Below, piece after piece: positions 1 through 12,046 of a stretch of DNA of 64,000 bases; position 1 is the stretch's first letter; each line of letters starts with the position of its first letter. A model generated the notes under the pieces. It did no database searches, was not told where the DNA came from, and was given only the letters and a program-made list of their open reading frames with translations. Position numbers and translations under genes: made by a program. Source of the stretch: a virus; the IMG/VR virus record IMGVR_UViG_3300027772_000010, positions 35,834-99,833 of that record, one strand, 5' to 3'.

Positions 1-288
1 AAGTTTTTAACTCTCTTTGTATCTTAGTTAAAACTACTTTAGGATACTGTTGAATTAACTCTTCATATTTATTAAAATCAAACTTCTCATCTTCTAAATA
101 ATAAAGCTTAATGTCTTCTTCTCTTTCATCTTTTCTTAATCTAATCTTTGGACTACTAATATCACATAATAAAAATATAGCCCACATAATTTTAGAAGTC
201 CTAGTCTTTTCTCTACTACTTTTATAGAATGTTCTATAAGGCTCTGCATGCATAAACTCTGGATTTACTTCCCAAAATTTACTAACAT
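1..288 (-). CDS. Hypothetical protein, 3' end runs off the window (MLVNFWEVNPEFMHAEPYRTFYKSSREKTRTSKIMWAIFLLCD...)
   Basis: Manually translated; ATG at 288 and frame open for 96 codons to position 1; co-oriented with the neighbouring minus-strand operon. Confidence 0.8.
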
Positions 289-299
289 TTTTTATATAA

Positions 300-707
300 T
301 CAAAATTCTGCATCAAATAATAATCCATCGTTTGTGTTTTTATTATTATATAAATATAAATTCTTTGTATTTACTCTTTCTCCAGTTTCTATATCTGTAA
401 ACTCTTTTACTATAATCTCCTCACTATCATAATAGTTTCTTTTTATTTCATCACCTGTTTTAATTTTTCTAGTTGCTACTAAGTAATGACCATTTACTTT
501 GACATTAGGATCAAAAGAATGTTTTATATATTTTACAATAGGATCTATTATATGATAATTATCTTCTAGTTGTATTGTGTATTGGGTAGGTACTTTGGAT
601 TCTTCGCAACAAATAAATAAAATATTTTCTCCTACAAAAAAATCTTTATCAGAGATAACTATTTTTAATTTGTTTTTCTGTATTATCTTAAAATTATTAT
701 TATTCAT
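300..707 (-). CDS. SET-domain-like protein (putative lysine methyltransferase)
   Basis: YIKHSFDPN matches the NHSCxPN motif; ATRKIKTGDEIKRNY matches the AxRDIxxGEELTxDY motif. Confidence 0.7.
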   Translation of the reverse strand: MNNNNFKIIQKNKLKIVISDKDFFVGENILFICCEESKVPTQYTIQLEDNYHIIDPIVKYIKHSFDPNVKVNGHYLVATRKIKTGDEIKRNYYDSEEIIVKEFTDIETGERVNTKNLYLYNNKNTNDGLLFDAEF

Positions 708-1212
708 GTATTAATCTATCTTTAAAAATTTCTGACAAACTATCATGATATAAAACTATATCTTCTCCTCTTAATAATTTCTTTAATTGCTTTTGTTCTA
801 ATGGCAATTCTAACAAAAGGTTTTTAAATTTATTATTTGCTGATCTAAGTTTTAATTCTTTTTTATCATAAATAGGAGTTTCATTAAGATCTACTAAACA
901 GTCTATTCTTGGAAAATGAACAATAGACCTCATTGATTTATCTAAAAAACAAATTGGAACTGTAGTGTTCATTAATAAGAAAAATCCTGAACTTGAACAT
1001 TCCTCAATAGGATAAAGAACTATATCTTCATAATCCTCAATAGCTTTAGTTAAAGGATGTACAAAACTTGTATATCCACCAGGGGTATTAATAAAAAAGT
1101 TAATTGGTAAATCATTATTATTTAAAAATGTTATGGCATCATTAATTGCTGATAACTCAAAATCATTGTTAAAAATATAAGTTAATCTTTTATTATCTAC
1201 AATTAGTTCCAT
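700..1212 (-). CDS. ClpP-like serine protease (S14 family)
   Basis: FINTPGG motif, CSSSG (catalytic Ser position) and IVHFP (MIHQP-like catalytic His). Confidence 0.7.
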   Translation of the reverse strand: MELIVDNKRLTYIFNNDFELSAINDAITFLNNNDLPINFFINTPGGYTSFVHPLTKAIEDYEDIVLYPIEECSSSGFFLLMNTTVPICFLDKSMRSIVHFPRIDCLVDLNETPIYDKKELKLRSANNKFKNLLLELPLEQKQLKKLLRGEDIVLYHDSLSEIFKDRLIHE

Positions 1213-1221
1213 GATAAAGCT

Positions 1222-1551
1222 TTAAGCAGTAATTTGTTTTATAATTCTAAGAGATATAGTAGTACAATTACCATGAACATAAATAAATTTATCCGCAGGA
1301 GAAGATAATTCAATACTAAAAAATAATTCTTTAGATTCTCCTGGTTCAATTATTGTGCCAGTGTCAATTCCTGAAGGAGTTGTACACCCACAACTTTTAG
1401 CTACACTCCTACAAGTAAATCTAGTAGTGCCAATATTCTTTATTATAGAAGATCCTGAAACAGTTTGATTTTTTTGACCAGTAACAGTTACACTTGATGG
1501 TTCAAATACTATTGTAGTCAAATCATTATTTGGGTCTAAGTTATTTTCCAT
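1222..1551 (-). CDS. DUF1573-like Ig-fold protein
   Basis: IKNIG...SCGCT...IEPGES pattern typical of Bacteroidota DUF1573. Confidence 0.65.
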   Translation of the reverse strand: MENNLDPNNDLTTIVFEPSSVTVTGQKNQTVSGSSIIKNIGTTRFTCRSVAKSCGCTTPSGIDTGTIIEPGESKELFFSIELSSPADKFIYVHGNCTTISLRIIKQITA

Positions 1552-1861
1552 TTTGTTCTATTATTATGTTATTTTGTGATTTAAAGTTTGACCAACTTTC
1601 TTGGTCCATCATATCAGGAAAACAAGGGTTATCTACTTTTTTACACCCTGCGGTACCATAATATAAGTCAGGAGTTTCACATCCACATTCTAAGCAGCTA
1701 CCCTTTAAGGTGCATTCTTTAGCTACTTCTGCTCTCCATAGCACTTGCTCTTTTTCCCAATCAGATAAAAAACCTGCCTCCCTGAGTTGAGCAGAGAGGA
1801 AGTTTTTTATATTTTTAAAATTAATCTTTGCAGGGTTAGCTGCATTTGGATCTGCAAACAT
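1541..1861 (-). CDS. Cys-rich putative Zn-binding protein
   Basis: C..CLECGC..C..CFPDMM cysteine pattern. Confidence 0.6.
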   Translation of the reverse strand: MFADPNAANPAKINFKNIKNFLSAQLREAGFLSDWEKEQVLWRAEVAKECTLKGSCLECGCETPDLYYGTAGCKKVDNPCFPDMMDQESWSNFKSQNNIIIEQNGK

Positions 1862-1870
1862 ATATCTTAT

Positions 1871-2215
1871 TTATGATAGTTCTAAAATATCCCAGTTTTC
1901 ATCAAAGTCTGATTTTGATTTTTTAGAAGACTCTTTTTTATATTCTTCTTTGTCTTCACCTTCATCTTCTGACTCTTCACTCATAAGAGGGTTTTCTTCA
2001 AAATATTTTTTCATACACTTATATGATCCTTTTTCAATATCATATATGTCAACAGTTAGTAGCCAACCATTTGTTATTTTTTCAATGCTTTTTGTAATGT
2101 CCTCTTTATCATTACTTTTAGTCAAAGTAAATGTTTCTTTGTCAGTACTTTTAGCCATAGAGTATGACTGTTTTTCTAAATTTTTTTCTTTTACTAAATA
2201 CATGTTTCCTTTCAT
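1871..2215 (-). CDS. Hypothetical protein (acidic/basic C-terminus)
   Basis: ORF track; tight operon packing. Confidence 0.7.
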   Translation of the reverse strand: MKGNMYLVKEKNLEKQSYSMAKSTDKETFTLTKSNDKEDITKSIEKITNGWLLTVDIYDIEKGSYKCMKKYFEENPLMSEESEDEGEDKEEYKKESSKKSKSDFDENWDILELS

Positions 2216-2219
2216 TTTA

Positions 2220-2645
2220 TTATAAATTATGTTTAACGGTTATTATATCTTCTGGGATTAAAAAAGTAAGTTCTAAAGGTTCTTCATTTTCTTCTATTTT
2301 ATGACAATAGAAAGAAAATGGCATCATGCCCTGTAAATAACTACCAAATACTGGTCTAGCTTCTTTGCTAGGATCATTTCCCTCAGGATGTTTGTAACTT
2401 ACAATAGGTCTGTCTACAAAATGGTCTGGAACAGATACTATATCTCCTGCAGAGTAGTCAGAGTTTAAGCCTGTTTTTAATACTTTAAAAGCATTTTTAA
2501 TTTCTGTAGCTTGTTTCTCAATTCCAATTAGTCTTGAAGCTAACTCACTTTTGTAAGCATAGCACTGGATTAAGACATGTTTTTCTTTTTCAATGTTAAA
2601 ATTGAAATCTGGAATACTTTTTTCTTTAAATTCTTTTACATTCAT
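2220..2645 (-). CDS. Hypothetical protein, possibly GroES-like
   Basis: VLIQ...FKVLKTG...YSAGDIVSV resembles the Cpn10 strand pattern; weak. Confidence 0.4.
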   Translation of the reverse strand: MNVKEFKEKSIPDFNFNIEKEKHVLIQCYAYKSELASRLIGIEKQATEIKNAFKVLKTGLNSDYSAGDIVSVPDHFVDRPIVSYKHPEGNDPSKEARPVFGSYLQGMMPFSFYCHKIEENEEPLELTFLIPEDIITVKHNL

Positions 2646-2920
2646 GATTTTTGTTGTTTTGGTTTATAATTTAATTGTTTTAATGTGTTTATAAGGTTTT
2701 TTACTTTTTTTTGGTTTCTTATTTTAAATGCTGCTCTTAATTTTCTCTTTAGTTTAAATATACTTGGGATTAGTTTTCCAAATTGTTCAAAATATATTTC
2801 CCTTTCTGAGTGGGATAACATTTCTTTTTTGACATGAGTTATATAATCTTTATATATTTCTTCTACTTCCTTCTTATTTATATTTAATCTCTCTGCAACT
2901 TGAGTATAAATGTTATCCAT
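2642..2920 (-). CDS. HU/IHF-like DNA-binding protein
   Basis: IYTQVAERLNINKKEVEEI...EIYFEQFGKL resembles the HU N-terminal helices and the IxGFGxF strand; basic. Confidence 0.6.
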   Translation of the reverse strand: MDNIYTQVAERLNINKKEVEEIYKDYITHVKKEMLSHSEREIYFEQFGKLIPSIFKLKRKLRAAFKIRNQKKVKNLINTLKQLNYKPKQQKS

Positions 2921-3056
2921 TAATTATTATTTAACGCATTATAATCCTTAAGCCAATGTAAAGTAAAATAAAAATTATTATTTTGTAAGGTTTTTTTATA
3001 AAATCTTCTAAATTACTTGTTTTTTTAAGCCATACATGTAGCCAAATCATAATGTA

Positions 3057-3064
3057 CAAAAATA
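3057..3064 (-). promoter_or_regulatory. Bacteroidota sigma70 -7 box (TATTTTTG)
   Basis: TAnnTTTG match in the intergenic gap upstream of the HU-like gene. Confidence 0.45.
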
Positions 3065-3097
3065 TAAAAATATTTATTAATGTAAACAAAAAATTTA

Positions 3098-3289
3098 TCA
3101 TACTAAAATAATGTTAATAGAATCATCTAAACTTAAACAAATGGTTAAGTTCTTATAAGTGGTTAATTCTTCATAATCTTCTATACCTAAGTCCCTCTTC
3201 AAAGTTTGATAAGTATTATTATTCAGTATTAAAAACTTTCTATACTTTGAATTATAAATTTTTATAATATCTATTATACTCTTATTCAT
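3098..3289 (-). CDS. Hypothetical protein
   Basis: ORF track; overlaps the upstream stop. Confidence 0.55.
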   Translation of the reverse strand: MNKSIIDIIKIYNSKYRKFLILNNNTYQTLKRDLGIEDYEELTTYKNLTICLSLDDSINIILV

Positions 3290-3692
3290 ATTGAAAGGTT
3301 ATTTCTAATTTAAACTCCTTGCTTTTATATAAAGTGATTAGCCAAGAAGGTAATTCATACTTTTCAATCTTAGCTTTTGAAAATTTATCACTAGATAAAC
3401 TCATTTTTTTAGTAATAATATTATTTTTAACTAGCCTATCATTAATATAAGCACCTACATATGAAGAATATACACCTATTTCCTTGGCTATAGCCACATG
3501 CATTTGATTCATATTCTTAAATTGCTTTCCATTTAGCTTTTGATCCTGATCTAAAATATAATATAGTACCCAATATAATACTTCATAAGTTTTATCTGAT
3601 AATAATATTCCCTTACTAGCTAATAATACCCTGGCCCTTTCTATAAACCCATCTTTTTTGTTATTTTTAAACTCTTGTTTTAAAATTTTCAT
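3282..3692 (-). CDS. Hypothetical protein, possible winged-HTH
   Basis: IAKEIGVYSSYVGAYINDRLVKNNII resembles a wHTH. Confidence 0.45.
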   Translation of the reverse strand: MKILKQEFKNNKKDGFIERARVLLASKGILLSDKTYEVLYWVLYYILDQDQKLNGKQFKNMNQMHVAIAKEIGVYSSYVGAYINDRLVKNNIITKKMSLSSDKFSKAKIEKYELPSWLITLYKSKEFKLEITFQYE

Positions 3693-3714
3693 TTTAATAT
3701 TGTTTTATGTAATG

Positions 3715-3722
3715 CAAAAATA
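3715..3722 (-). promoter_or_regulatory. Bacteroidota sigma70 -7 box (TATTTTTG)
   Basis: TAnnTTTG followed by CA, about 20 nt upstream of the ATG at 3692. Confidence 0.55.
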
Positions 3723-3756
3723 TAACATTTTTTTTAAATATTATGTTTTTTTTATT

Positions 3757-4071
3757 TTAATCCAAAAATACTAGTTCCTTTTCTAACATTTCCTCTAAAG
3801 TATCCTCTGTAAACTCACTACAATCCTTTGCTAATTGCACAAAAGCCTCAAAATCATCCTTATGTATTCCGAATCTGTCTAATTTATAGGTCTCATAAGG
3901 AGCACAAGTCTCATCTAAGGTAATCTCTGCTAACTGTACCCCCTGAATATTACCCTGATTAGGATGAATAGTTATCCAAATACAAGTATACTCCTGCCCC
4001 TTAATAACCCACTTCTTTGAAGGTATCTCATCAGGCTTGTTTAAGTCATTGATACATATTAATCTACACAT
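3757..4071 (-). CDS. Hypothetical protein
   Basis: ORF track; protein-like composition. Confidence 0.75.
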   Translation of the reverse strand: MCRLICINDLNKPDEIPSKKWVIKGQEYTCIWITIHPNQGNIQGVQLAEITLDETCAPYETYKLDRFGIHKDDFEAFVQLAKDCSEFTEDTLEEMLEKELVFLD

Positions 4072-4076
4072 ATTAT

Positions 4077-4268
4077 TTATTTTTTATGTTCTTCATAATA
4101 ATTTAAAATAAATCCTAAAAGTACTACTATGTTCATACCACAAGATACCAGTACCTCATGTATATCCTCATAGATAGTAGTCATAAGGTGTATATGCCCC
4201 ACTGTCCAAAAAGGAATAGCTAGGTTTTGTGAAATCCACACAATTAAATACTTGAAAAATTTTATCAT
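4077..4268 (-). CDS. Small membrane protein
   Basis: Two hydrophobic segments. Confidence 0.65.
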   Translation of the reverse strand: MIKFFKYLIVWISQNLAIPFWTVGHIHLMTTIYEDIHEVLVSCGMNIVVLLGFILNYYEEHKK

Positions 4269-4282
4269 ATTTAAATTTCATG

Positions 4283-4290
4283 CAAAATTA
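4283..4290 (-). promoter_or_regulatory. Bacteroidota sigma70 -7 box (TAATTTTG)
   Basis: TAnnTTTG followed by CA just upstream of the ATG at 4268. Confidence 0.55.
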
Positions 4291-4313
4291 AATATTTTTT
4301 TTCAACTAGTAAT

Positions 4314-4356
4314 AAAAAAAAATACCAGCTTCTTCTAATTAAAGAAAAAACTGGTA
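4314..4356 (-). terminator. Intrinsic terminator closing the candidate ncRNA
   Basis: TACCAG...CTGGTA stem followed by a 9-nt U tract on the minus strand. Confidence 0.65.
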
Positions 4357-4728
4357 CCTATAAGTAAAATATTGTTTATATAACTCTAACCCTTTAACTA
4401 ATAAGTTAAATAAGTTCTTTTAAAGCATAAAAAGGTTAACCCAGACTTAACAGGCATACCAGTATTTTAGTAAACTTAGTTTCTTTGTTCCTATTAAGTA
4501 GTTGGTTTATAAGTAATCATATATCTCTACTTAGATTACCTACTATCCTGTATACATTAAAAGTAGAATTACTCTATTTAAACTTTTAATCTTTCTCTCC
4601 TTACCCTTCAGGTGAGCTTGTTATCCTGGGAGGTCCTACCTTATTCAAAACTATCTAGTGAAATCCTTACCAACCAACTTTTCAGTTCAAATCTCAGGGC
4701 ACTAGAATTTGTCTCAGTGAAAAAACTG
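4314..4728 (-). ncRNA. Candidate ~400-nt structured non-coding RNA
   Basis: Bounded by a TAACTTTG promoter and an intrinsic terminator; only very short ATG-started ORFs found by eye; several internal stems. Confidence 0.5.
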
Positions 4729-4731
4729 ATG

Positions 4732-4739
4732 CAAAGTTA
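4732..4739 (-). promoter_or_regulatory. Bacteroidota sigma70 -7 box (TAACTTTG)
   Basis: Exact TAnnTTTG followed by CA, at the strand switch. Confidence 0.6.
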
Positions 4740-4942
4740 AGTAAAAAAAAGTTATTGATACCATATTTTTTAAAAATTTTTCTGAAGACCCCGTAAAATC
4801 TAAATTTTTTAAAATTTTTTTTAACCCCCTAGGCAAAATTGTTTTTGAAATTGAGTGCTGGAGTATCCCTCCCTCCAAGCCCCAGCTAACTTCGGGATTT
4901 TGGAATAGCCCCACCTATTATTAACAATTAAATTTTTCAATT

Positions 4943-5335
4943 ATGCAATCAAATTCCAGTACAACTGTAGTAGGCTCAGCCACTTACACACAAATTGATA
5001 CTCTAGTAGTGTCACCAATTACTTGTCAGATAACTTCTAGCAAGGTAGTCCACTCTGACAAAGATAACTCTGACACTCAAGTATTTGAGCTTGAATTTCT
5101 AGGGGAGTATAAAGGCGCAGGTATGCAAAAGGCTTATAGAAGATTAGGCCAAGGTATCACCAAGACTGGCGAAGCCTTTACTGTAGCACCTTTGAAGACT
5201 TTGGACAACTGCGAGATTATAGTTACCAAGAGAGATTCTGATGGTACTGTATTCTTCTCTGTTAAAGGCAGAGCAAAGGATTTCACTGCTGAAGCTGCTG
5301 ATGCTGCTGCAAGAGCCAAGAGTATCTTTGGTTAA
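4943..5335 (+). CDS. First gene of the plus-strand (early) block; beta-rich hypothetical protein
   Basis: 130-aa ORF, higher GC than its neighbours, with its own terminator. Confidence 0.75.
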   Translation: MQSNSSTTVVGSATYTQIDTLVVSPITCQITSSKVVHSDKDNSDTQVFELEFLGEYKGAGMQKAYRRLGQGITKTGEAFTVAPLKTLDNCEIIVTKRDSDGTVFFSVKGRAKDFTAEAADAAARAKSIFG

Positions 5336-5339
5336 AAAT

Positions 5340-5367
5340 AAGGGGAGAAATCCCCTTGTTTTTTTTT
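5340..5367 (+). terminator. Intrinsic terminator
   Basis: AAGGGGA-gaaa-TCCCCTT hairpin plus T tract. Confidence 0.85.
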
Positions 5368-5606
5368 AGTATTTTTAACACATTTAATAGGAAAAGAAAT
5401 ATAATAATTTATCTAATTTTTAATTTATTAATTAAAACACAAAATAAATTATTTATTTTCTAAACCAATTTATTTTTATTTAATTACCTATTTAACAAAA
5501 AAATTAATCTTAAACTCTACATTGTTAGTTGCCATATCTAACAACATAAAGTTTTCAAGTTTGGTATCTATAATACCTAATTTTTTTTGTTAATAGTTTG
5601 GAAATG

Positions 5607-5657
5607 AGGGAGTTTGGTTGGTAGTATTACTAAGAACTCCCTTTTTTCCTTTTTTTT
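5607..5657 (+). terminator. Terminator-like hairpin
   Basis: AGGGAGTT...AACTCCCT stem followed by T tracts. Confidence 0.55.
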
Positions 5658-5712
5658 CAAAACACATTATAGGCCTTTTGGTACATTATATAGCAAAATG
5701 TTTATTTTTTAT

Positions 5713-5765
5713 ACCTGAGCTACAGGGTTTTTTAGATTACACAGAAGCTAAGTGAAAGTAATCTA
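5713..5765 (+). ncRNA. Double-hairpin motif, copy 1
   Basis: ACCT-GAGCTACA-GGGT followed by TAGATTAC-ACAGAAGCTAAGTGAAA-GTAATCTA. Confidence 0.55.
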
Positions 5766-5767
5766 TA

Positions 5768-5870
5768 TAATTAAATGCACCATAACTCACTTCCCAAGGG
5801 TGAGCAGTTGTAATATCAGTACAAAGTAGAAATACTGGGGTACTTATTACAATTGAGTGCAGAGGGAAAT
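5768..5870 (+). ncRNA. Twister-like (P1-type) self-cleaving ribozyme
   Basis: AAA-P2(TGCA)-CC-...-P4(CTCAC/GTGAG; loop TTCCCAAGG)-long P5 with GAAA loop-P2'(TGCA)-GAGGG; both twister pseudoknots can form. Confidence 0.6.
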
Positions 5871-5877
5871 AAAAACT

Positions 5878-5907
5878 TAACAATCCTAAGTTGTTGAAGG
5901 CACTTAG
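5878..5907 (+). ncRNA. Compact H-type pseudoknot candidate
   Basis: TAACAA/TTGTTG stem; loop CTAAG pairs with downstream CTTAG. Confidence 0.35.
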
Positions 5908-5995
5908 TTCCCTAATAATTTACGAATATTGAATTAACAACAGTTCTTTATAGTATTTTATTAGGGTTTTAGTGTAAAACACAATCCATTATTAA

Positions 5996-6048
5996 ATCCT
6001 GAGCTACAAGGATCAAGAACTACTACAGAAGCTTAGTGAACAGTAGTT
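5996..6048 (+). ncRNA. Double-hairpin motif, copy 2
   Basis: ATCCT-GAGCTACA-AGGAT followed by AACTACT-ACAGAAGCTTAGTGAAC-AGTAGTT; loops nearly identical to copy 1, stems different but paired. Confidence 0.55.
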
Positions 6049-6216
6049 TTTATAATTAATATTAAACAATATAACTATGTTAGGAATTATAGTAATTTTC
6101 ATAATGGTCTACGGATCATATTGTGCTAAGAAAGCACACCAAGAAATAATTAACAACAAAAAACTTTTTAAATAACAAATAATTAACTTTATTAACACTA
6201 AAAATTAACAAAAAAA

Positions 6217-6816
6217 ATGGAAAATTTATTTAACAATTTACAAGAACCAACAGGAGACATTAAAGTAAGTACAGAAAAAGAATGGTTATCTCTTAATTTA
6301 GGAGGAACTATTGTACTACAAAAAGGAAATTTTTCTCAATCATTTACATATTGGGGAAATGTTAGTAAAATGAATTTTAATAACGCTAACTATATAACAA
6401 TGGAAGATTGTGATTGGGATACACATACTACTATGCTAGGCAATCTTAAAATAGATAGTATATCTAAACTTAGAACTACATTAGAGAATAGTGGGTTAAA
6501 AACACTTTCAGATAGTCTTAATTTTAGCACTGAAGAAATAAAAAAAGCTATATTTTCTATTGTTCCTAACTCAACCATAGTAAAAAATGTATTTAGAGAA
6601 AACTTTATATTATGGGAATCATTAACAGATAATGAAAAAAAAGTAATAAGAGTAAAAGATGCAATAGAAAATTACAATGATTACTTTGTCAACAACCCTT
6701 ATAAATTAAAATATTTAATCTTAAAAGAAGATGGTAAATTAGATGGTGAAACAATACCAACAATAGATCAACTAAATGAAAGATTAAATGACTTATTATT
6801 TAACATTAAAAATTAA
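6217..6816 (+). CDS. Hypothetical early protein
   Basis: 199-aa ORF with an A-rich leader. Confidence 0.8.
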   Translation: MENLFNNLQEPTGDIKVSTEKEWLSLNLGGTIVLQKGNFSQSFTYWGNVSKMNFNNANYITMEDCDWDTHTTMLGNLKIDSISKLRTTLENSGLKTLSDSLNFSTEEIKKAIFSIVPNSTIVKNVFRENFILWESLTDNEKKVIRVKDAIENYNDYFVNNPYKLKYLILKEDGKLDGETIPTIDQLNERLNDLLFNIKN

Positions 6817-6820
6817 CAAC

Positions 6821-7048
6821 ATGAATTCAAATTTTTTATCAAAAGTATGTATAGCTTTATTTTTAACAACCTTATTTTTATTAATTTCCTCATTATTATA
6901 TGTTTATCATCAAACCAATTTAAACGCAACTTTGTTTGAAGTAGAGTTAGTTGATAGAGATATATTAGTTTATGACAATGATAATTTTGTAGGATCAGTA
7001 GAATTGCAAGGGCAATTAGACAGTCTAATGACTGATTACTTGCAGTAA
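6821..7048 (+). CDS. Small membrane protein
   Basis: Second ATG (6821) preferred; N-terminal TM helix. Confidence 0.65.
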   Translation: MNSNFLSKVCIALFLTTLFLLISSLLYVYHQTNLNATLFEVELVDRDILVYDNDNFVGSVELQGQLDSLMTDYLQ

Positions 7049-7090
7049 ATTTATAAAGACATTAAACTTAACTAACAAACCTTTTAATGG

Positions 7091-7131
7091 GACTGTACCT
7101 TTTAGCATTTAGCTATTAGGTGCAGTTTTTT
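7091..7131 (+). terminator. Intrinsic terminator
   Basis: GACTGTACCT...AGGTGCAGTT stem plus T tract. Confidence 0.6.
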
Positions 7132-7156
7132 ATTTATTAACATTAACTTATTTAAA

Positions 7157-7363
7157 ATGAAAGATCCAAACTTAACAAATTTAATTGATATTAAGTTAGC
7201 TGCTTTGGTAGCTCGTAAAAAGTCTGAAAATAAACTTAGTAATCAAATAGCAGAGAATAAACTTTGGCCTTCAACATTACAAGAAAATTCAGTATCACAT
7301 TTTAGTGCTCAAAACACTAACTATAGTGCAATAATACAAACCATTAAAAATTATAATGGATAA
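7157..7363 (+). CDS. Hypothetical protein
   Basis: ORF track. Confidence 0.55.
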   Translation: MKDPNLTNLIDIKLAALVARKKSENKLSNQIAENKLWPSTLQENSVSHFSAQNTNYSAIIQTIKNYNG

Positions 7364-7485
7364 CAAATACATTTAAGGCATTGTATATAGTTGCCACACA
7401 AAACACAATATAGTTTTAAATGTATAGGTAGCTCAAACCTTAATCAGAGCTCTGTTTGTCAACTACATAATAAGTTGATACCTTG

Positions 7486-7518
7486 GTGGTTATATGGTTA
7501 AACCACTTTTTATTTTTT
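7486..7518 (+). terminator. Intrinsic terminator
   Basis: GTGGTT...AACCAC stem plus T tract. Confidence 0.55.
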
Positions 7519-7625
7519 AAATAAGATTATGACTAAAAAGAAAAAAATTAGTATAGTATTTGACTTTGAATCTGTTGTAGAAATAGATTGTTTAGATTAA
7601 AAATTAACCTATTAACAAAAAAAAT

Positions 7626-8855
7626 ATGAAATTACCAATATTCTCAGACTCATTTATAGAGTTTTTAAACAACATTAAAAAAGAATCTAGAATTGCTAGA
7701 TTAATAATATCTGTCATTCAAATGCACAATGATGGTTTTAAGAATATGTTACCTAGAGTATTAACTAATGACAATGTTAATTATATTACATATAGATCTG
7801 ATGGTAACATATCATTTTTACCTACTGGAAAAGAACACGTTGTAAATGATGACAACACTTGGTCTAGAACTAATAGACAATCTGGCAAACCAGCTAAAAT
7901 AATTCGCAAATTATTCACAGACAAAATGTTATCATTACTTAATGAACAAGACTTTGAAATATTTAATAACTACTATAAATGTAAATTTAACACTACAGGA
8001 TATAGATTTGAATTATTAGATAATACTCAAATTGCTGAAGTTTATGATATGACTTTAGAAAATGGAAGTTCAAGTCTAAATAATTCTTGTATGAATGGTA
8101 AAAGTGATTGTTTAGATATTTACACTTATTGTAAAGACTTAAAAATTTTAGCTTTATTTAACCAAAACAATGAATTAGCAGGTAGAGCATTAGTATGGAC
8201 TATTATAGATGAAGAAATAGATGGATCAAAAATTATCTTAATGGATAGAGTTTATGTAACTCAGGACTATTTATATGATTTATTTATAGAACATGCTACA
8301 TCTAATAAATGGTGGTATAAACAAGATTATAAGTCTATGCATAGTAAAACTAGTTTTATTAATTCTGAAGGAAATGTTTTATATAGAAAGTTTAAAATAT
8401 ATACTGCTACAGATTTTGACACTTATCCTTATATAGATACTTTTCAATATGGTGATGATGGTTATTTAACAAACCAGCCTGATGGTAAATATGAATATTC
8501 TAGTACAGATGGTGAAAGATCTGGAGGTGATGTTTATGATGATATTACAGGTAATTATATAAGTCAAGATGATGCAGTAACAATAGAGTATGGTGAATAT
8601 GAAGGTGAAAGAACACATATAGATAATACTGTAATGGTTAATGATTCTTATTATTGGAAAGACAGTGAAGATTTATGTATTATTAATTATGAATACTATC
8701 TTAAAGAAGATTGTGTATATTCTGATTATGATGATGAATACTATTTAGAAGACGATTGTGTATATTCTGAATATCATAGCACACATATATTAATATCAGA
8801 TGCTTATGAAGTTGATGGTAACTATTATCATCAAGATATTGTAAACAAATTATAA
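7626..8855 (+). CDS. Conserved phage protein (SCM...GRALVW...DRVY...PYIDT) with an acidic Tyr-rich repeat tail
   Basis: Motif series recalled from phage proteins encoded next to M28-like peptidases; C-terminal DCVYS repeats. Confidence 0.6.
   Translation: MKLPIFSDSFIEFLNNIKKESRIARLIISVIQMHNDGFKNMLPRVLTNDNVNYITYRSDGNISFLPTGKEHVVNDDNTWSRTNRQSGKPAKIIRKLFTDKMLSLLNEQDFEIFNNYYKCKFNTTGYRFELLDNTQIAEVYDMTLENGSSSLNNSCMNGKSDCLDIYTYCKDLKILALFNQNNELAGRALVWTIIDEEIDGSKIILMDRVYVTQDYLYDLFIEHATSNKWWYKQDYKSMHSKTSFINSEGNVLYRKFKIYTATDFDTYPYIDTFQYGDDGYLTNQPDGKYEYSSTDGERSGGDVYDDITGNYISQDDAVTIEYGEYEGERTHIDNTVMVNDSYYWKDSEDLCIINYEYYLKEDCVYSDYDDEYYLEDDCVYSEYHSTHILISDAYEVDGNYYHQDIVNKL
8691..8775 (+). repeat. Imperfect 45-nt tandem repeat (EYYLxxDCVYS x2)
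   Basis: gaatactat...gattgtgtatattctga occurs twice. Confidence 0.7.
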
Positions 8856-8874
8856 ATTATTAAACAAAAAAATT

Positions 8875-9882
8875 ATGAACAGATTACAAGAATTAAAAAA
8901 TGTATTAAAAGTACAAACCTCTTCTTATGACCAATGGAGAATGTTTGCATTTATAATAAGATATATTACTAAATTTAACAATATTTCTTATTACACAGAT
9001 AATGGTAATGTATACATTACTAAAGGAAGTGCTAACTCTTACCCTTGTGTAGTAGCTCATATGGATACTGTTCACTCTATTGTAGAAGATTTATCATTAT
9101 TAACTATAAATGAGAACATTACAGGATTTAATAATGTTACTATGACTCAAACAGGTGTAGGGGGTGATGACAAAGTAGGTATATTTATAGCCTTACAATG
9201 TTTAAATCATTTTGACAATATTAAGTTAGTCTTTTTCAGAGATGAAGAAGTTGGTTGTCAGGGATCTTATCTAGCAGAAATAGACTTTTTTAACAATGTT
9301 AATTTTGTTTTACAATGTGATAGAAGAGGTAATAGTGATTTTATTGTTAATGCAGGAAGTGTAGAATTATCTAGTAAAGACTTTCAGAATGACATTATAA
9401 CTGTAATTAAAAAATATGGATATTCTTTTAATAATGGTATGATGACAGATGTTATGGCTTTAAAAGAAATTGGCTTACCTGTCTCTGCAGCTAATATTAG
9501 TTGTGGGTATTATAATCCTCATATGGAAAATGAGTATGTTAATATTCCAGATGTAATGAACTGTTTAGATATGGTTATAAATATTATTGCTAGTTTTGGA
9601 CATAAATCATACTATCATGTATACAATACAACAGTGTCTAAAAATAAAGACAAAAACTATAATTATAATTTTTTAAAAACTAATTATGGTATTTTAGAAG
9701 ATGATTATATTTTTGACACAACAGATTCTTATACATTTAACAAATCAGAAGAAATGGATTACAAAAAAGAATATTATTATTGTAAAAATTGCTTAACTTA
9801 TGAATATAAAAGTAGTTTACAAAATGATTTATGTGATTTTTGTATGGAATATGAAACTGAAAAAAACAATTATTTCCTTTAA
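8875..9882 (+). CDS. M28/M20-clan zinc peptidase
   Basis: AHMDTVH, GGDDKVG, DEEVG, DRRG and GYYNPH metal-ligand motifs. Confidence 0.8.
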   Translation: MNRLQELKNVLKVQTSSYDQWRMFAFIIRYITKFNNISYYTDNGNVYITKGSANSYPCVVAHMDTVHSIVEDLSLLTINENITGFNNVTMTQTGVGGDDKVGIFIALQCLNHFDNIKLVFFRDEEVGCQGSYLAEIDFFNNVNFVLQCDRRGNSDFIVNAGSVELSSKDFQNDIITVIKKYGYSFNNGMMTDVMALKEIGLPVSAANISCGYYNPHMENEYVNIPDVMNCLDMVINIIASFGHKSYYHVYNTTVSKNKDKNYNYNFLKTNYGILEDDYIFDTTDSYTFNKSEEMDYKKEYYYCKNCLTYEYKSSLQNDLCDFCMEYETEKNNYFL

Positions 9883-9892
9883 ATAACTAAAT

Positions 9893-10777
9893 ATGACTAA
9901 CAACGAAGAAATATTTAATCAAGGATTAGATATACTAAATAAATTTAAACTAAATTGGAACGTAACAAAATTACCTTTATTTTCTAATTTAGAAACTGAC
10001 ATTTTACCCACCAATTCTTTTGGTATTTTTAGAACAGATACAAATGAGTGGTTAGGAACTCATGGTAAAAATTATGTTCCTTTGCAAAACTTTGATTTAA
10101 TTAATACAGTATTAACTGCTTCACAAGACATTCAAGACTTTAATTTACAAGAAGTTAGAGCTGGAGTTTTTTTAAAAGGTAGAAAAGTGTATATTCAATT
10201 ACCATTAAGGAATGAAGAAATAGGTGCTTCTCAAGTTAAAAGATGGATTACAGCATTAAATTCTCATGATGGTAGTACAGCAGTAGCTTTTGGTTCACAA
10301 CAAACAGTAATTATTTGTGAAAATACTTTTTATAAAGCTTATAAAGAATTAAATAAAGTAAGACATAGCTTACATATGAATCAAAAATTAGAAGTTATGG
10401 TAGAAGATTTAAATGCTTCTTTACTATTAGATAAATTAATGGTAGATGAATTTAAGTCTTGGATTGATAAACCTATTACTACTAATCAAATAGATGCTGT
10501 ATTAAAGTCTATAGTATCATTAGATGATACACAAGATTTGGAAGACATAAGCACTCGTAAAAGCAATCAAATCAAAAAAATTAATGAATCTTTTGAAACA
10601 GAGTTTGCTACACAAGGAGAAAACTTGTGGGGATTATTTAATGGAGTAACTCGTTACACTAACCATAATATGTTTCCTAATAAAAGTCAAAATAGTATTC
10701 AAGAAAGCTTAATGCTTGGTCAAGCAGCTAAAATTAATGAAACTGCTTTTAATCAAATACATGCATTTGCAAATTAA
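9893..10777 (+). CDS. DUF932 family phage/plasmid protein
   Basis: RTDT..LG....Y.PLQN, GRKV, NSHDGS, ICEN.F, RH and LWGLFNGVT.Y..H motifs. Confidence 0.8.
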   Translation: MTNNEEIFNQGLDILNKFKLNWNVTKLPLFSNLETDILPTNSFGIFRTDTNEWLGTHGKNYVPLQNFDLINTVLTASQDIQDFNLQEVRAGVFLKGRKVYIQLPLRNEEIGASQVKRWITALNSHDGSTAVAFGSQQTVIICENTFYKAYKELNKVRHSLHMNQKLEVMVEDLNASLLLDKLMVDEFKSWIDKPITTNQIDAVLKSIVSLDDTQDLEDISTRKSNQIKKINESFETEFATQGENLWGLFNGVTRYTNHNMFPNKSQNSIQESLMLGQAAKINETAFNQIHAFAN

Positions 10778-10791
10778 TTTAAACTAATTAA

Positions 10792-10820
10792 AGTAGTGGG
10801 AGTAAAATCCCACTATTTTT
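10792..10820 (+). terminator. Intrinsic terminator
   Basis: AGTAGTGGGA-gtaaaa-TCCCACTATT plus T tract. Confidence 0.8.
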
Positions 10821-10852
10821 ATTTTATTAACAAAAAAATTTAAATTAAAATA

Positions 10853-11053
10853 ATGGAATTTAAAATCAAGGAAATAATTGAACAAATAAAATTACTTAAT
10901 GATACCGATTTTTACAAAGTTAATAATGTAATAGATGAACAAGATTTACATCCTGAAACAAAAAAATTAGCTAACTCTAATAGACGAATAATGACTTTAT
11001 TCACTCAGCTCTATTGGCAGATAAGACAGGAAAAGAATAGGTTTTTAAAGTAA
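10853..11053 (+). CDS. Hypothetical protein
   Basis: ORF track; A-rich leader. Confidence 0.65.
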   Translation: MEFKIKEIIEQIKLLNDTDFYKVNNVIDEQDLHPETKKLANSNRRIMTLFTQLYWQIRQEKNRFLK

Positions 11054-11080
11054 CTATTAAATATAAAAGTAACAAAAAAA

Positions 11081-11476
11081 ATGAAAAAATTAATTACATT
11101 ATGCATGCTTATAATAGCTATGCAATTAAATTCTCAAATGGTTAAGACAAACCATGGTTGGGATTATTACTCTAAACTATATTTATTTAAAGAATACGGA
11201 GAAAAGGCAATATATTTTTCAAGAGTATCAAAGTTATCATATAATGAGAATGATAATGGTCTAATGATAATATACACAGATGGCCAAACAGAAACACTTT
11301 ATTTAACTCAAGTTGAACCAATATTTACATCAAAAACTGATGCAGGACATAAGTATGATGTACATGAAATGTTAAATTATACAACATATACTGGATTGTA
11401 TCTTCAAATTATATTTGCTGAAAAGGTAGTAATGAGGTTATTTTACCCAAATGGATTTAGAGAGTATTCATATTAA
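11081..11476 (+). CDS. Secreted hypothetical protein
   Basis: MKKLITLCMLIIAMQLNSQ is a Bacteroidota-style signal peptide with Q at +1. Confidence 0.7.
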   Translation: MKKLITLCMLIIAMQLNSQMVKTNHGWDYYSKLYLFKEYGEKAIYFSRVSKLSYNENDNGLMIIYTDGQTETLYLTQVEPIFTSKTDAGHKYDVHEMLNYTTYTGLYLQIIFAEKVVMRLFYPNGFREYSY

Positions 11477-11499
11477 CTTAACAAATAAAAATTAAACAA

Positions 11500-11850
11500 A
11501 TGAAAGATTATTTAAAATTTAAATTACAAGGTGCTGCAGAAGCAATTATAAATCTACATGAAAATTTAGATCCTAAATTAAATGTAAAAGCCTTTGCTTA
11601 TTATAATAACTTATCAAAAACAATTGATGTTACACTATATTGGAATAGTGATTATAACATTGATATTAATGAAGAAGTAGAAATGAGTAAAGATTTTAAT
11701 GATATTCAAGACTTTAATGAATTTTGTTTTGAAATATGGAATTTTATTGATGAATTAGAAAAGACTAAATATGATTCAGAGTATTCTCCTAAACAAATTA
11801 AAAAAGAATTTGAGGAAGAAATGAAATCAGAGTATTTAAGAGGAAATTAA
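11500..11850 (+). CDS. Hypothetical protein
   Basis: ORF track. Confidence 0.7.
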   Translation: MKDYLKFKLQGAAEAIINLHENLDPKLNVKAFAYYNNLSKTIDVTLYWNSDYNIDINEEVEMSKDFNDIQDFNEFCFEIWNFIDELEKTKYDSEYSPKQIKKEFEEEMKSEYLRGN

Positions 11851-11860
11851 TAATAAAGAT

Positions 11861-12046
11861 ATGAATGAAGCAAAATTAAAAGCAAAAGAATTAGTTGACA
11901 AAATGTTACATTGTTATCAAGGTAATATTGATGAATATACTGCTAAACAATGTGCATTAATAGCAGTTGATGAAATATTAGATGCTTGCAAAACTTATTT
12001 ATCATCATATTATTTAGAAGTTAAAAAAGAAATAGAAAAATTATAA
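11861..12046 (+). CDS. Small conserved phage protein (KAKELVDK..AKQCALIAVDEI..EVKKEIEKL)
   Basis: Pattern recalled from Flavobacteria-type phages. Confidence 0.7.
   Translation: MNEAKLKAKELVDKMLHCYQGNIDEYTAKQCALIAVDEILDACKTYLSSYYLEVKKEIEKL

Follow-up and report, generated by a model that had tools for sequence, protein, structure and literature searches.

A probable structured non-coding RNA gene at the divergence point of two gene arms in aquatic crAss-like phages

The locus and its relatives

The window, i.e., the whole stretch of 64,000 nt analyzed here (positions 35,834-99,833 of IMG/VR record IMGVR_UViG_3300027772_000010), is DNA of an uncultured aquatic crAss-like phage. Its plus strand carries genes for a family-A DNA polymerase and a ribonucleotide reductase, its minus strand contains giant ORFs of 2,400 to 2,950 aa, and many TAnnTTTG boxes are present; relatives of this phage stem from metagenomes of lakes, rivers, and the sea. 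At the divergence point of two gene arms lies an ORF-free unit on the minus strand (4739-4314). Homologous units, found through the divergent 130-aa neighbor (4943-5335) and through exact words of the unit's conserved core, are 418 to 426 nt long and comprise 10 distinct sequences from 3 lineages. These are strains of the window type with approximately 95% genome identity (L001, L004-L009, and L013), a second lineage consisting of L011/L015, which is the complete 97.7-kb genome G001 with terminal repeats, and of G002, and a third represented by L003, the same contig as L010 and L014. The gene order is the same in all 3 lineages, running from the divergent 130-aa gene through a promoter box, the RNA, a hairpin with U-run, and another promoter box to small genes. 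Searches of IMG/VR with 4 core patterns returned only the same 5 contigs and one extra locus (L023), which was rejected as a homologue, being a chance 18-mer within a 492-aa ORF.

The first gene of the plus-strand arm, which encodes the 130-aa protein, matches no Pfam or PHROG family and has only 23 relatives among 5.8 billion proteins. Between this gene and the RNA promoter, a GC-rich block (4830-4915; core TATTYCAAAATCCCGAAGT.AG...GGGCTTGG) is kept in all 3 lineages while its surroundings diverge, and two A/T-tract units, each after a GGGG(G)T run, are found at approximately 4740-4830. The 4740-4915 region may serve the first plus-strand gene as leader or promoter, or may encode another RNA. 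Further along, where the replication arm begins, a lone 199-aa gene lies between two long ORF-poor gaps (5336-6216 and 6817-7625); the layout matches that of the highly transcribed g004-g006 gaps of phage phi14:2, and the two gaps are poorly conserved between lineages. A motif of 42 to 66 nt is repeated in the plus-strand leader (5710-5775, 5995-6059, and 5774-5815) and recurs in many short contigs from 3 RNA libraries with flanks unlike those of the window, and is thus common to other elements in those samples. The replication arm also encodes an M42-type (PF05343) aminopeptidase (8875-9882), an unusually widespread phage-borne peptidase, with more than 1,400 relatives at E values of 1e-10 or better and 524 IMG/VR stretches encoding such a peptidase.

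On the leftward side, the segment between the second promoter and a 104-aa gene (4069-4275) is a variable slot: a 63-aa ORF (4077-4268) is absent from L003, L001 and L008 carry approximately 176 extra nt at 4069-4086, and in one metatranscriptome contig, 4259 and 4275 are separated by 889 other letters. Farther in this direction, a 136-aa protein (3282-3692) is the best conserved of the 5 flanking proteins compared, with 85% identity to its G001 counterpart. It contains an HTH-like stretch, has weak protein-atlas leads to wHTH/RepL/MarR-type proteins, and is possibly a regulator of the leftward arm. PHROG and Pfam searches with the immediate neighbors of the unit gave no matches except for one sub-threshold Pfam, and the protein-atlas leads for 2 downstream proteins included no RNA-binding family.

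Boundaries, coding status, and conservation of the unit

The unit opens with a putative Bacteroidota-type -7 promoter box, TAACTTTG (extended, TTTnTACTTAnCTTTGCA), at 4732-4739 of the minus strand. The box is kept in all 3 lineages while the DNA upstream diverges, and near-invariant sequence starts 4 to 5 nt downstream of it; the RNA would start at about 4731-4727. Bare TAnnTTTG occurs in the window at chance frequency (121 found versus 130 expected), so that the promoter is called from its context and its conservation rather than from the motif as such. The combination of an A-tract, TAnnTTTGCAT, and an intergenic position is found at only 3 sites of the window, 4739, 4290, and 3722, all of which head the same leftward arm. 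Upstream of the box, no clear -33 TTTG, an element located approximately 19 to 21 nt upstream in Bacteroidota primary-sigma promoters, is evident.

At the opposite end, a terminator scan, which recovered 5 terminator-like sites versus 0.8 expected in shuffles, identified a 17-bp hairpin (4359-4320; -19.9 kcal/mol) with a 6-nt loop followed by U9 (4314-4359 in total, minus strand), i.e., a GC-containing hairpin with a U-run directly after it, as an intrinsic (rho-independent) terminator is defined. The other 2 lineages have a hairpin with U9-10 in the same place, built from unrelated hairpin sequence. Directly past the terminator, a further promoter-like box, TAATTTTG (AAAAAAAATATT-TAATTTTGCAT; 4283-4290, minus strand), precedes the downstream small genes. 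It is conserved in all 3 lineages, which suggests that the downstream genes have their own promoter, and a similar site is present at 3722-3715. In the window lineage, the 5' end of the RNA (CAGUUUUUUC, 4715-4731) repeats the 5' arm of the terminator (4320-4345) and could thus pair with the terminator 3' arm (-14 kcal/mol), a pairing that is not kept in the other lineages.

The body of the unit (4314-4731, minus strand; approximately 410 to 418 nt) contains no ORF of at least 25 aa on the RNA strand. TAA, TAG, and TGA are each present in all 3 minus-strand frames, so that recoding of one stop opens no frame. The only plus-strand ORFs in the unit, of 42 and 34 aa, are not conserved, and L003 has a 1-nt insertion in the 42-aa ORF. 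This organization agrees with a sequence-only reading of the stretch, which had described a host-type promoter, approximately 400 nt devoid of a credible ORF, a hairpin with U9 terminator, and a new promoter for the next gene: all 4 elements were recovered, the first as a putative promoter, and a conserved small ORF, which could have explained the region otherwise, was found on neither strand of the unit.

Metatranscriptomes provide a weak indication of transcription. Short contigs from 2 studies fall inside the RNA gene (4572-4711 and 4389-4523); contigs of this kind give no strand, ends, or level and hence do not prove a discrete transcript. Five RNA runs contain 6% to 14% of the words of 3700-5400. 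Among the 4 runs aligned, one has long contigs over the whole region and is DNA-like, and the others have sparse short contigs. In one run (X2), 5 of the 8 contigs listed fall on the 130-aa gene, the runs having been selected with a stretch that includes that gene.

The 5' part of the unit (4498-4731, minus strand), a core of approximately 235 nt covering the predicted helices P1 to P5, is nearly invariant, with 91% to 94% identity between lineages (93.6%, 90.7%, and 94.5% in the individual comparisons). By comparison, the 5 flanking genes share 59% to 81% nucleotide identity, with 40% to 66% at third codon positions, and the 130-aa protein is only 46% to 58% identical between lineages. The core is better conserved than any neighboring protein gene compared. 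When the window is set against G001, the core ranks first for stretches of 100, 200, and 240 nt, with identities of 0.97, 0.95, and 0.94, respectively, and a median of 0.77. The nearby non-coding DNA of 5336-6216 and 6817-7625 is hardly alignable between lineages, and the 3' 140 nt or so of the RNA drop to 57% to 68% identity with their helices retained. Substitutions within the core are mostly common to L011 and L003; such sharing between lineages fits vertical descent under purifying selection, not recent transfer. The GC content is higher in the core (0.34 to 0.37) than in the flanks (0.19 to 0.25), as had been pointed out previously. The unit had also been called purine-rich, and a purine excess does exist, but it is modest (57% for the core, 53% overall).

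No match to any Rfam 15 family was obtained at the gathering score, either in the whole window or in the homologues. The families covered include GOLLD, ROOL, OLE, HEARO, raiA, 6S, 6S-Flavo, and RNase P, along with tmRNA, SRP, group I and II introns, pRNA, and riboswitches. At E values up to 10 across 3900-5200, the only match within the RNA was a chance-level one to mir-320 on the terminator hairpin (19.7 bits versus 55.5); the homologues L003 and L011 had none in the RNA, and L003 had a single chance-level snoRNA match outside of it. ARAGORN found 0 tRNA or tmRNA genes on both strands of the window. These searches, which include the Rfam comparison proposed earlier, bear out the remark that the RNA is not recognizable as a tRNA, tmRNA, RNase P, or 6S RNA. 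A tRNA-like reading of GAUUUGAAC was discarded, because its flanks form no T-arm and ARAGORN was negative. Equally, blastn of 4200-5000 against 50,697 GenBank phage records produced no match, and 2 core patterns had 0 matches in 185,579 prokaryote genomes. Searches with nhmmer and covariance model R1 of 80 loci (1.09 Mb) from phages sharing the nearby M42-type peptidase, alongside positions 1-12000 and 60001-100418 of phi14:2 and the complete G001, revealed no further homologue; many of the 80 loci may lack the equivalent region. The same tools found no second copy of the RNA in the window or in G001, and the RNA has no internal repeats.

Several known classes could be set aside. A group I intron was rejected, given that no ORF or RNA gene is interrupted, that Intron_gpI does not match, and that only the tetraloop-receptor module is held in common. 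A retron msr-msd or diversity-generating (DGR) template RNA was dismissed because the complete 97.7-kb G001 has no RVT_1 and there is no second copy, and an antisense RNA because similarity or complementarity of the RNA to the rest of the window nowhere exceeds 14 nt (E values of 0.08 or worse).

Predicted fold and tertiary motifs

The fold model comprises 12 helices and 67 pairs on the minus strand and was scored on the 10 distinct sequences. The P2 arm (4654-4706) consists of a 7-bp helix, UCUAGUG/CACUAGA, around the hairpin AACU-GAAA-AGUU (4687-4676; GAAA loop at 4683-4680); it contains a G-C to A-U double change (alignment columns 31/75), and the isolated segment refolds alike. P3 (4603-4634) is a predicted hairpin of ACCU/GGGU, a CC/AA internal loop, CAGG/CCUG, and a 12-nt loop. 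Its paired bases are all invariant, and covariation speaks neither for nor against it, as is also the case for the GAAA hairpin of P2, which never varies; the CUC/GAG pairing of the minimum free energy structure in this region was rejected, since C118A breaks it in 2 lineages. The P4 hairpin (4556-4590), AUUAAAAG/CUUUUAAU with an inner UAGA/UCUA, is paired throughout in all sequences and includes an A-U to G-U change (columns 144/178). The P5 arm (4509-4543) combines a 10-bp helix, an 11-nt GAAA-receptor motif, two pairs, and a GNRA cap (4527-4524), and has one double and three single compensatory changes. In the 3' domain (4387-4454), the predicted helices are P6 (CCUG/UGGG), P7 (UAACCU/GGGUUA), P7a (CUU/AAG), and P7b (UUUAAC/GUUAAA), with four double changes in P7a and P7b, and with columns 283/291 of P6 occurring as G-U, G-C, and A-U. 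Isolated arms refold as in the model. A closing helix suggested by RNAalifold, AAUUCUA/UAGAGUU, is broken in several sequences and was not retained.

Across the 10 sequences, the 67 model pairs are 99.3% paired, and 6 of them changed on both sides, namely one in P2 (G-C to A-U), one in P5 (U-A to C-G), and two each in P7a and P7b. Sliding the partners left 0 to 2 such double changes, and 0 of 500 shuffles reached the observed value. The homologue comparison proposed by the sequence-only reading thus did uncover compensatory changes. However, there are only 3 independent lineages, so that many unrelated column pairs also seem to covary, and the structure was chosen partly from the same alignment that was used to score covariation; the case for helices kept by compensatory changes is therefore suggestive rather than proof. 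In a 70-pair model, to which 3 P5-apex pairs were added, standard pairs reach 99.3% on the minus strand versus 89.7% on the plus strand. The difference comes from 70 cells that are G-U, and it favors the minus strand as that of the RNA. The folding energy is moderately unusual (z = -2.46 sense and -1.90 antisense).

All 5 pairings listed in the earlier reading are present in the sequence. CTAGTG/CACTAG and GTAATC/GATTAC have changes on both sides of a pair, and ATTAAAAGT/ACTTTTAAT is supported by an A-U to G-U change. Of the 5' TCAGT/ACTGA hairpin, only 3 to 4 pairs are left in the other lineages. The long-range pairing AGTTGGTT/AACCAACT gains no support from covariation and competes with the invariant AACU-GAAA-AGUU hairpin, and the pseudoknot that had been suggested from crossing pairings is accordingly not supported: AGUUGGUU/AACCAACU overlaps the GAAA hairpin and has a G-G mismatch in L003, in which C230G is matched instead by G186C, next to helix P5.

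A GAAA loop and an 11-nt receptor are both conserved in the core, each in the right helical context. The P2 hairpin AACU-GAAA-AGUU is invariant across lineages. The two halves of the P5 receptor read UCUAAG (4535-4530) and UAUGA (4521-4517) in the window and CCUAAG...UAUGG in 2 lineages, the outer C-G being replaced by U-A in the window, and the P5 cap varies between GAGA, GAAA, and GCAA but is always GNRA. On both strands of the 64-kb window, helix-embedded CUAAG...UAUG occurs at a single site, that of P5; GAAA hairpins with at least 4 pairs occur approximately once per 4 kb. The presence of loop and receptor together in one invariant core of 235 nt suggests that the RNA folds compactly or that copies dock with one another. 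Judging from these motifs, the P2 GAAA loop most likely docks into the 11-nt receptor of P5.

Interpretation and comparison with known systems

Collectively, these results make it probable that the minus strand of 4739-4314 constitutes an autonomous gene whose product is a structured non-coding RNA of approximately 410 nt, and that the family to which this RNA belongs, carried by aquatic crAss-like (Crassvirales) phages of one narrow clade, had not been catalogued before. The boundaries, constraint, compensatory changes, motifs, and novelty thereby support the original suggestion of a novel large phage RNA forming its own transcription unit. Presumably, host RNA polymerase starts at the Bacteroidota-type -7 box, by analogy with phi14:2, and transcription would end at the strong intrinsic terminator; since the next genes appear to have their own promoter, a discrete RNA should be released. 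The 5' 235 nt or so would fold into five hairpin arms, with the invariant P2 GAAA loop docking in the P5 receptor and either compacting one molecule or joining copies, and the 3' 140 nt or so would make up a second domain, in which structure is conserved and sequence is not. Given that the core and the purine-rich single-stranded joints within it are near frozen while the neighboring proteins drift, the RNA may act in trans on a slowly evolving partner, for which a host machine, a small ligand, or the RNA's own copies are candidates. Recognition of such a partner by a trans-acting folded RNA is a conjecture that we put forward tentatively, as a possibility. It is doubtful, although conceivable, that the RNA is an infection-phase effector, compact and maybe self-assembling, which binds a highly conserved host component and disables or redirects it, or which soaks up a small signaling molecule of host defense, perhaps within a wider superfamily of loop-and-receptor RNAs nearly unchanged in aquatic crAss-like phages.

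The layout of an aptamer-sized core, a variable region, and a terminator upstream of same-strand genes could also be that of a cis-acting leader, a riboswitch or attenuator in which the core senses a signal and controls terminator read-through into the downstream small genes, and tetraloop-receptor contacts are found in some riboswitch aptamers. However, the promoter-like box that follows the terminator in all 3 lineages would provide the downstream genes with a promoter of their own, the core lies approximately 140 nt from the terminator, and no riboswitch model matches. Moreover, pairings that could compete with the terminator arms reach at best -7.5 to -14 kcal/mol, which is weak next to the -17 to -22.5 kcal/mol of the folded 75-nt 3' tail that holds the terminator, and they are differently placed in each lineage, which means that there is no conserved antiterminator. 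For this reason, and because of the conserved promoter box past the terminator, the unit was not assigned to the riboswitches or attenuators, and we consider a leader function unlikely. A transcript that primes or activates DNA synthesis where the arms diverge, akin to ColE1 RNA II and the T4/T7 origin transcripts, would suit the location at the divergence point beside the A/T tracts of 4740-4830, as well as the proximity of the 136-aa protein, whose resemblance to wHTH/RepL-type proteins is a weak protein-atlas lead (score 0.90 or below). This role is quite unlikely in view of the strong terminator with its U-run, the lack of a G-rich 3' segment for a persistent hybrid, and the compensatory changes and tetraloop-receptor module, which point to a folded, free RNA; to our knowledge, known origin transcripts do not need some 235 invariant nt.

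Extreme nucleotide conservation alone cannot separate an RNA role from a DNA role, and the adjacent GC-rich block at 4830-4915 may itself be a DNA signal, so that the core might be a packaging site, protein-binding array, or recombination site to which the RNA is incidental. Against this, substitutions keep pairing even as G-U, which is an A-C mismatch on the other strand (hence the 99.3% versus 89.7%), the 3' domain retains helices while losing sequence identity, the conserved block is bracketed exactly by promoter and terminator, and neither internal repeats nor a second copy are present; a purely DNA-level function is thus very unlikely. A packaging RNA of the phi29 pRNA type, or a different RNA carried in the virion, would likewise be a stand-alone phage RNA, and the GAAA loop with its receptor and a palindromic AUAUAU beside the cap offer potential contacts between copies. 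We nonetheless hold it to be highly improbable: the Rfam library includes the pRNA family and gave no match, crAss-like phages package with a terminase, pRNA is known to us only from phi29-like phages with protein-primed DNA, and pRNA sequences drift fast, unlike the conserved core. Nothing besides the missing annotation speaks for a protein gene that has decayed or been recoded, or for a gap that lacks ORFs by chance, and this explanation is effectively refuted by the three stop types in all frames, by conservation above every neighboring gene, and by the 1-nt insertion tolerated inside the core in L003.

An RNA gene of the preferred kind, autonomous and structured, would be of broader interest. 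The crAss-like phages rank with the most abundant Bacteroidota viruses, and very little is known of their RNA biology; abundant non-coding transcripts have been observed in one cultured member. The unit described here is sharply bounded and contains a pair of tertiary-contact motifs that is textbook for large ribozymes; with these bounds, the conserved core, and the motif pair, it represents a concrete candidate of approximately 410 nt for structural, pull-down, and knock-out work. If the RNA indeed targets a host machine or a defense signal, phage takeover would gain a strategy that relies on RNA.

The motif pair of the phage RNA is that of the P4-P6 domain of Tetrahymena-type group I introns, in which the GAAA loop of L5b docks in the 11-nt receptor of J6a/6b. 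A GAAA tetraloop and a helix-embedded CCUAAG...UAUGG receptor are present in both, and the helices of the phage RNA are probably packed side by side in the same manner. Unlike group I introns, the phage RNA is bounded by a promoter box and a terminator of its own; it lacks flanking exons and matches no group I model, and none of the catalytic core elements were identified in it. With 6S and CsrB-type RNAs, it shares the character of a free-standing RNA that could bind a conserved host machine, and its core contains five AGGA motifs by raw count. It differs from 6S RNA in that none of the 6S models, the Flavobacteria form among them, matches, and in that it is not shaped like a rod with a bubble at its center; as far as we know, CsrA is not typical of Bacteroidota.

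For the marine crAss-like phage phi14:2, which infects Flavobacteriia, host RNA polymerase has been found to read the middle and late genes (bioRxiv 10.1101/2020.03.07.982082), and two long intergenic regions are transcribed above most genes, with unknown function (bioRxiv 10.1101/2020.03.07.982082). The abundant RNAs of these g004-g006 regions are likewise long, non-coding, and located near the start of a gene arm. Nevertheless, they belong to the early phase, run rightward, and are probably products of the virion polymerase, whereas the window RNA is leftward and lies behind a host-type box, and the two have opposite strands relative to the replication arm. Searches of phi14:2 positions 1-12000 and 60001-100418 with nhmmer and the covariance model detected no similarity to the window RNA, and by position, the phi14:2 RNAs correspond better to the gaps at 5336-6216 and 6817-7625 of the window.

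Finally, GOLLD, ROOL, and OLE are large "ornate" non-coding RNAs of bacteria and phages with structures determined by cryo-EM (PMC12286853). The phage RNA differs from them in being smaller (approximately 410 nt), in having no Rfam match and no adjacent tRNA genes, and in residing in Crassvirales phages of aquatic Bacteroidota-type hosts. At the same time, it resembles them in its length of hundreds of nt, its independent gene, and its many conserved helices and tertiary motifs, and, like many of them, it is phage-borne. GOLLD, ROOL, and OLE are homo-oligomers, and the GAAA loop and receptor of the phage RNA could, in principle, join copies as well.
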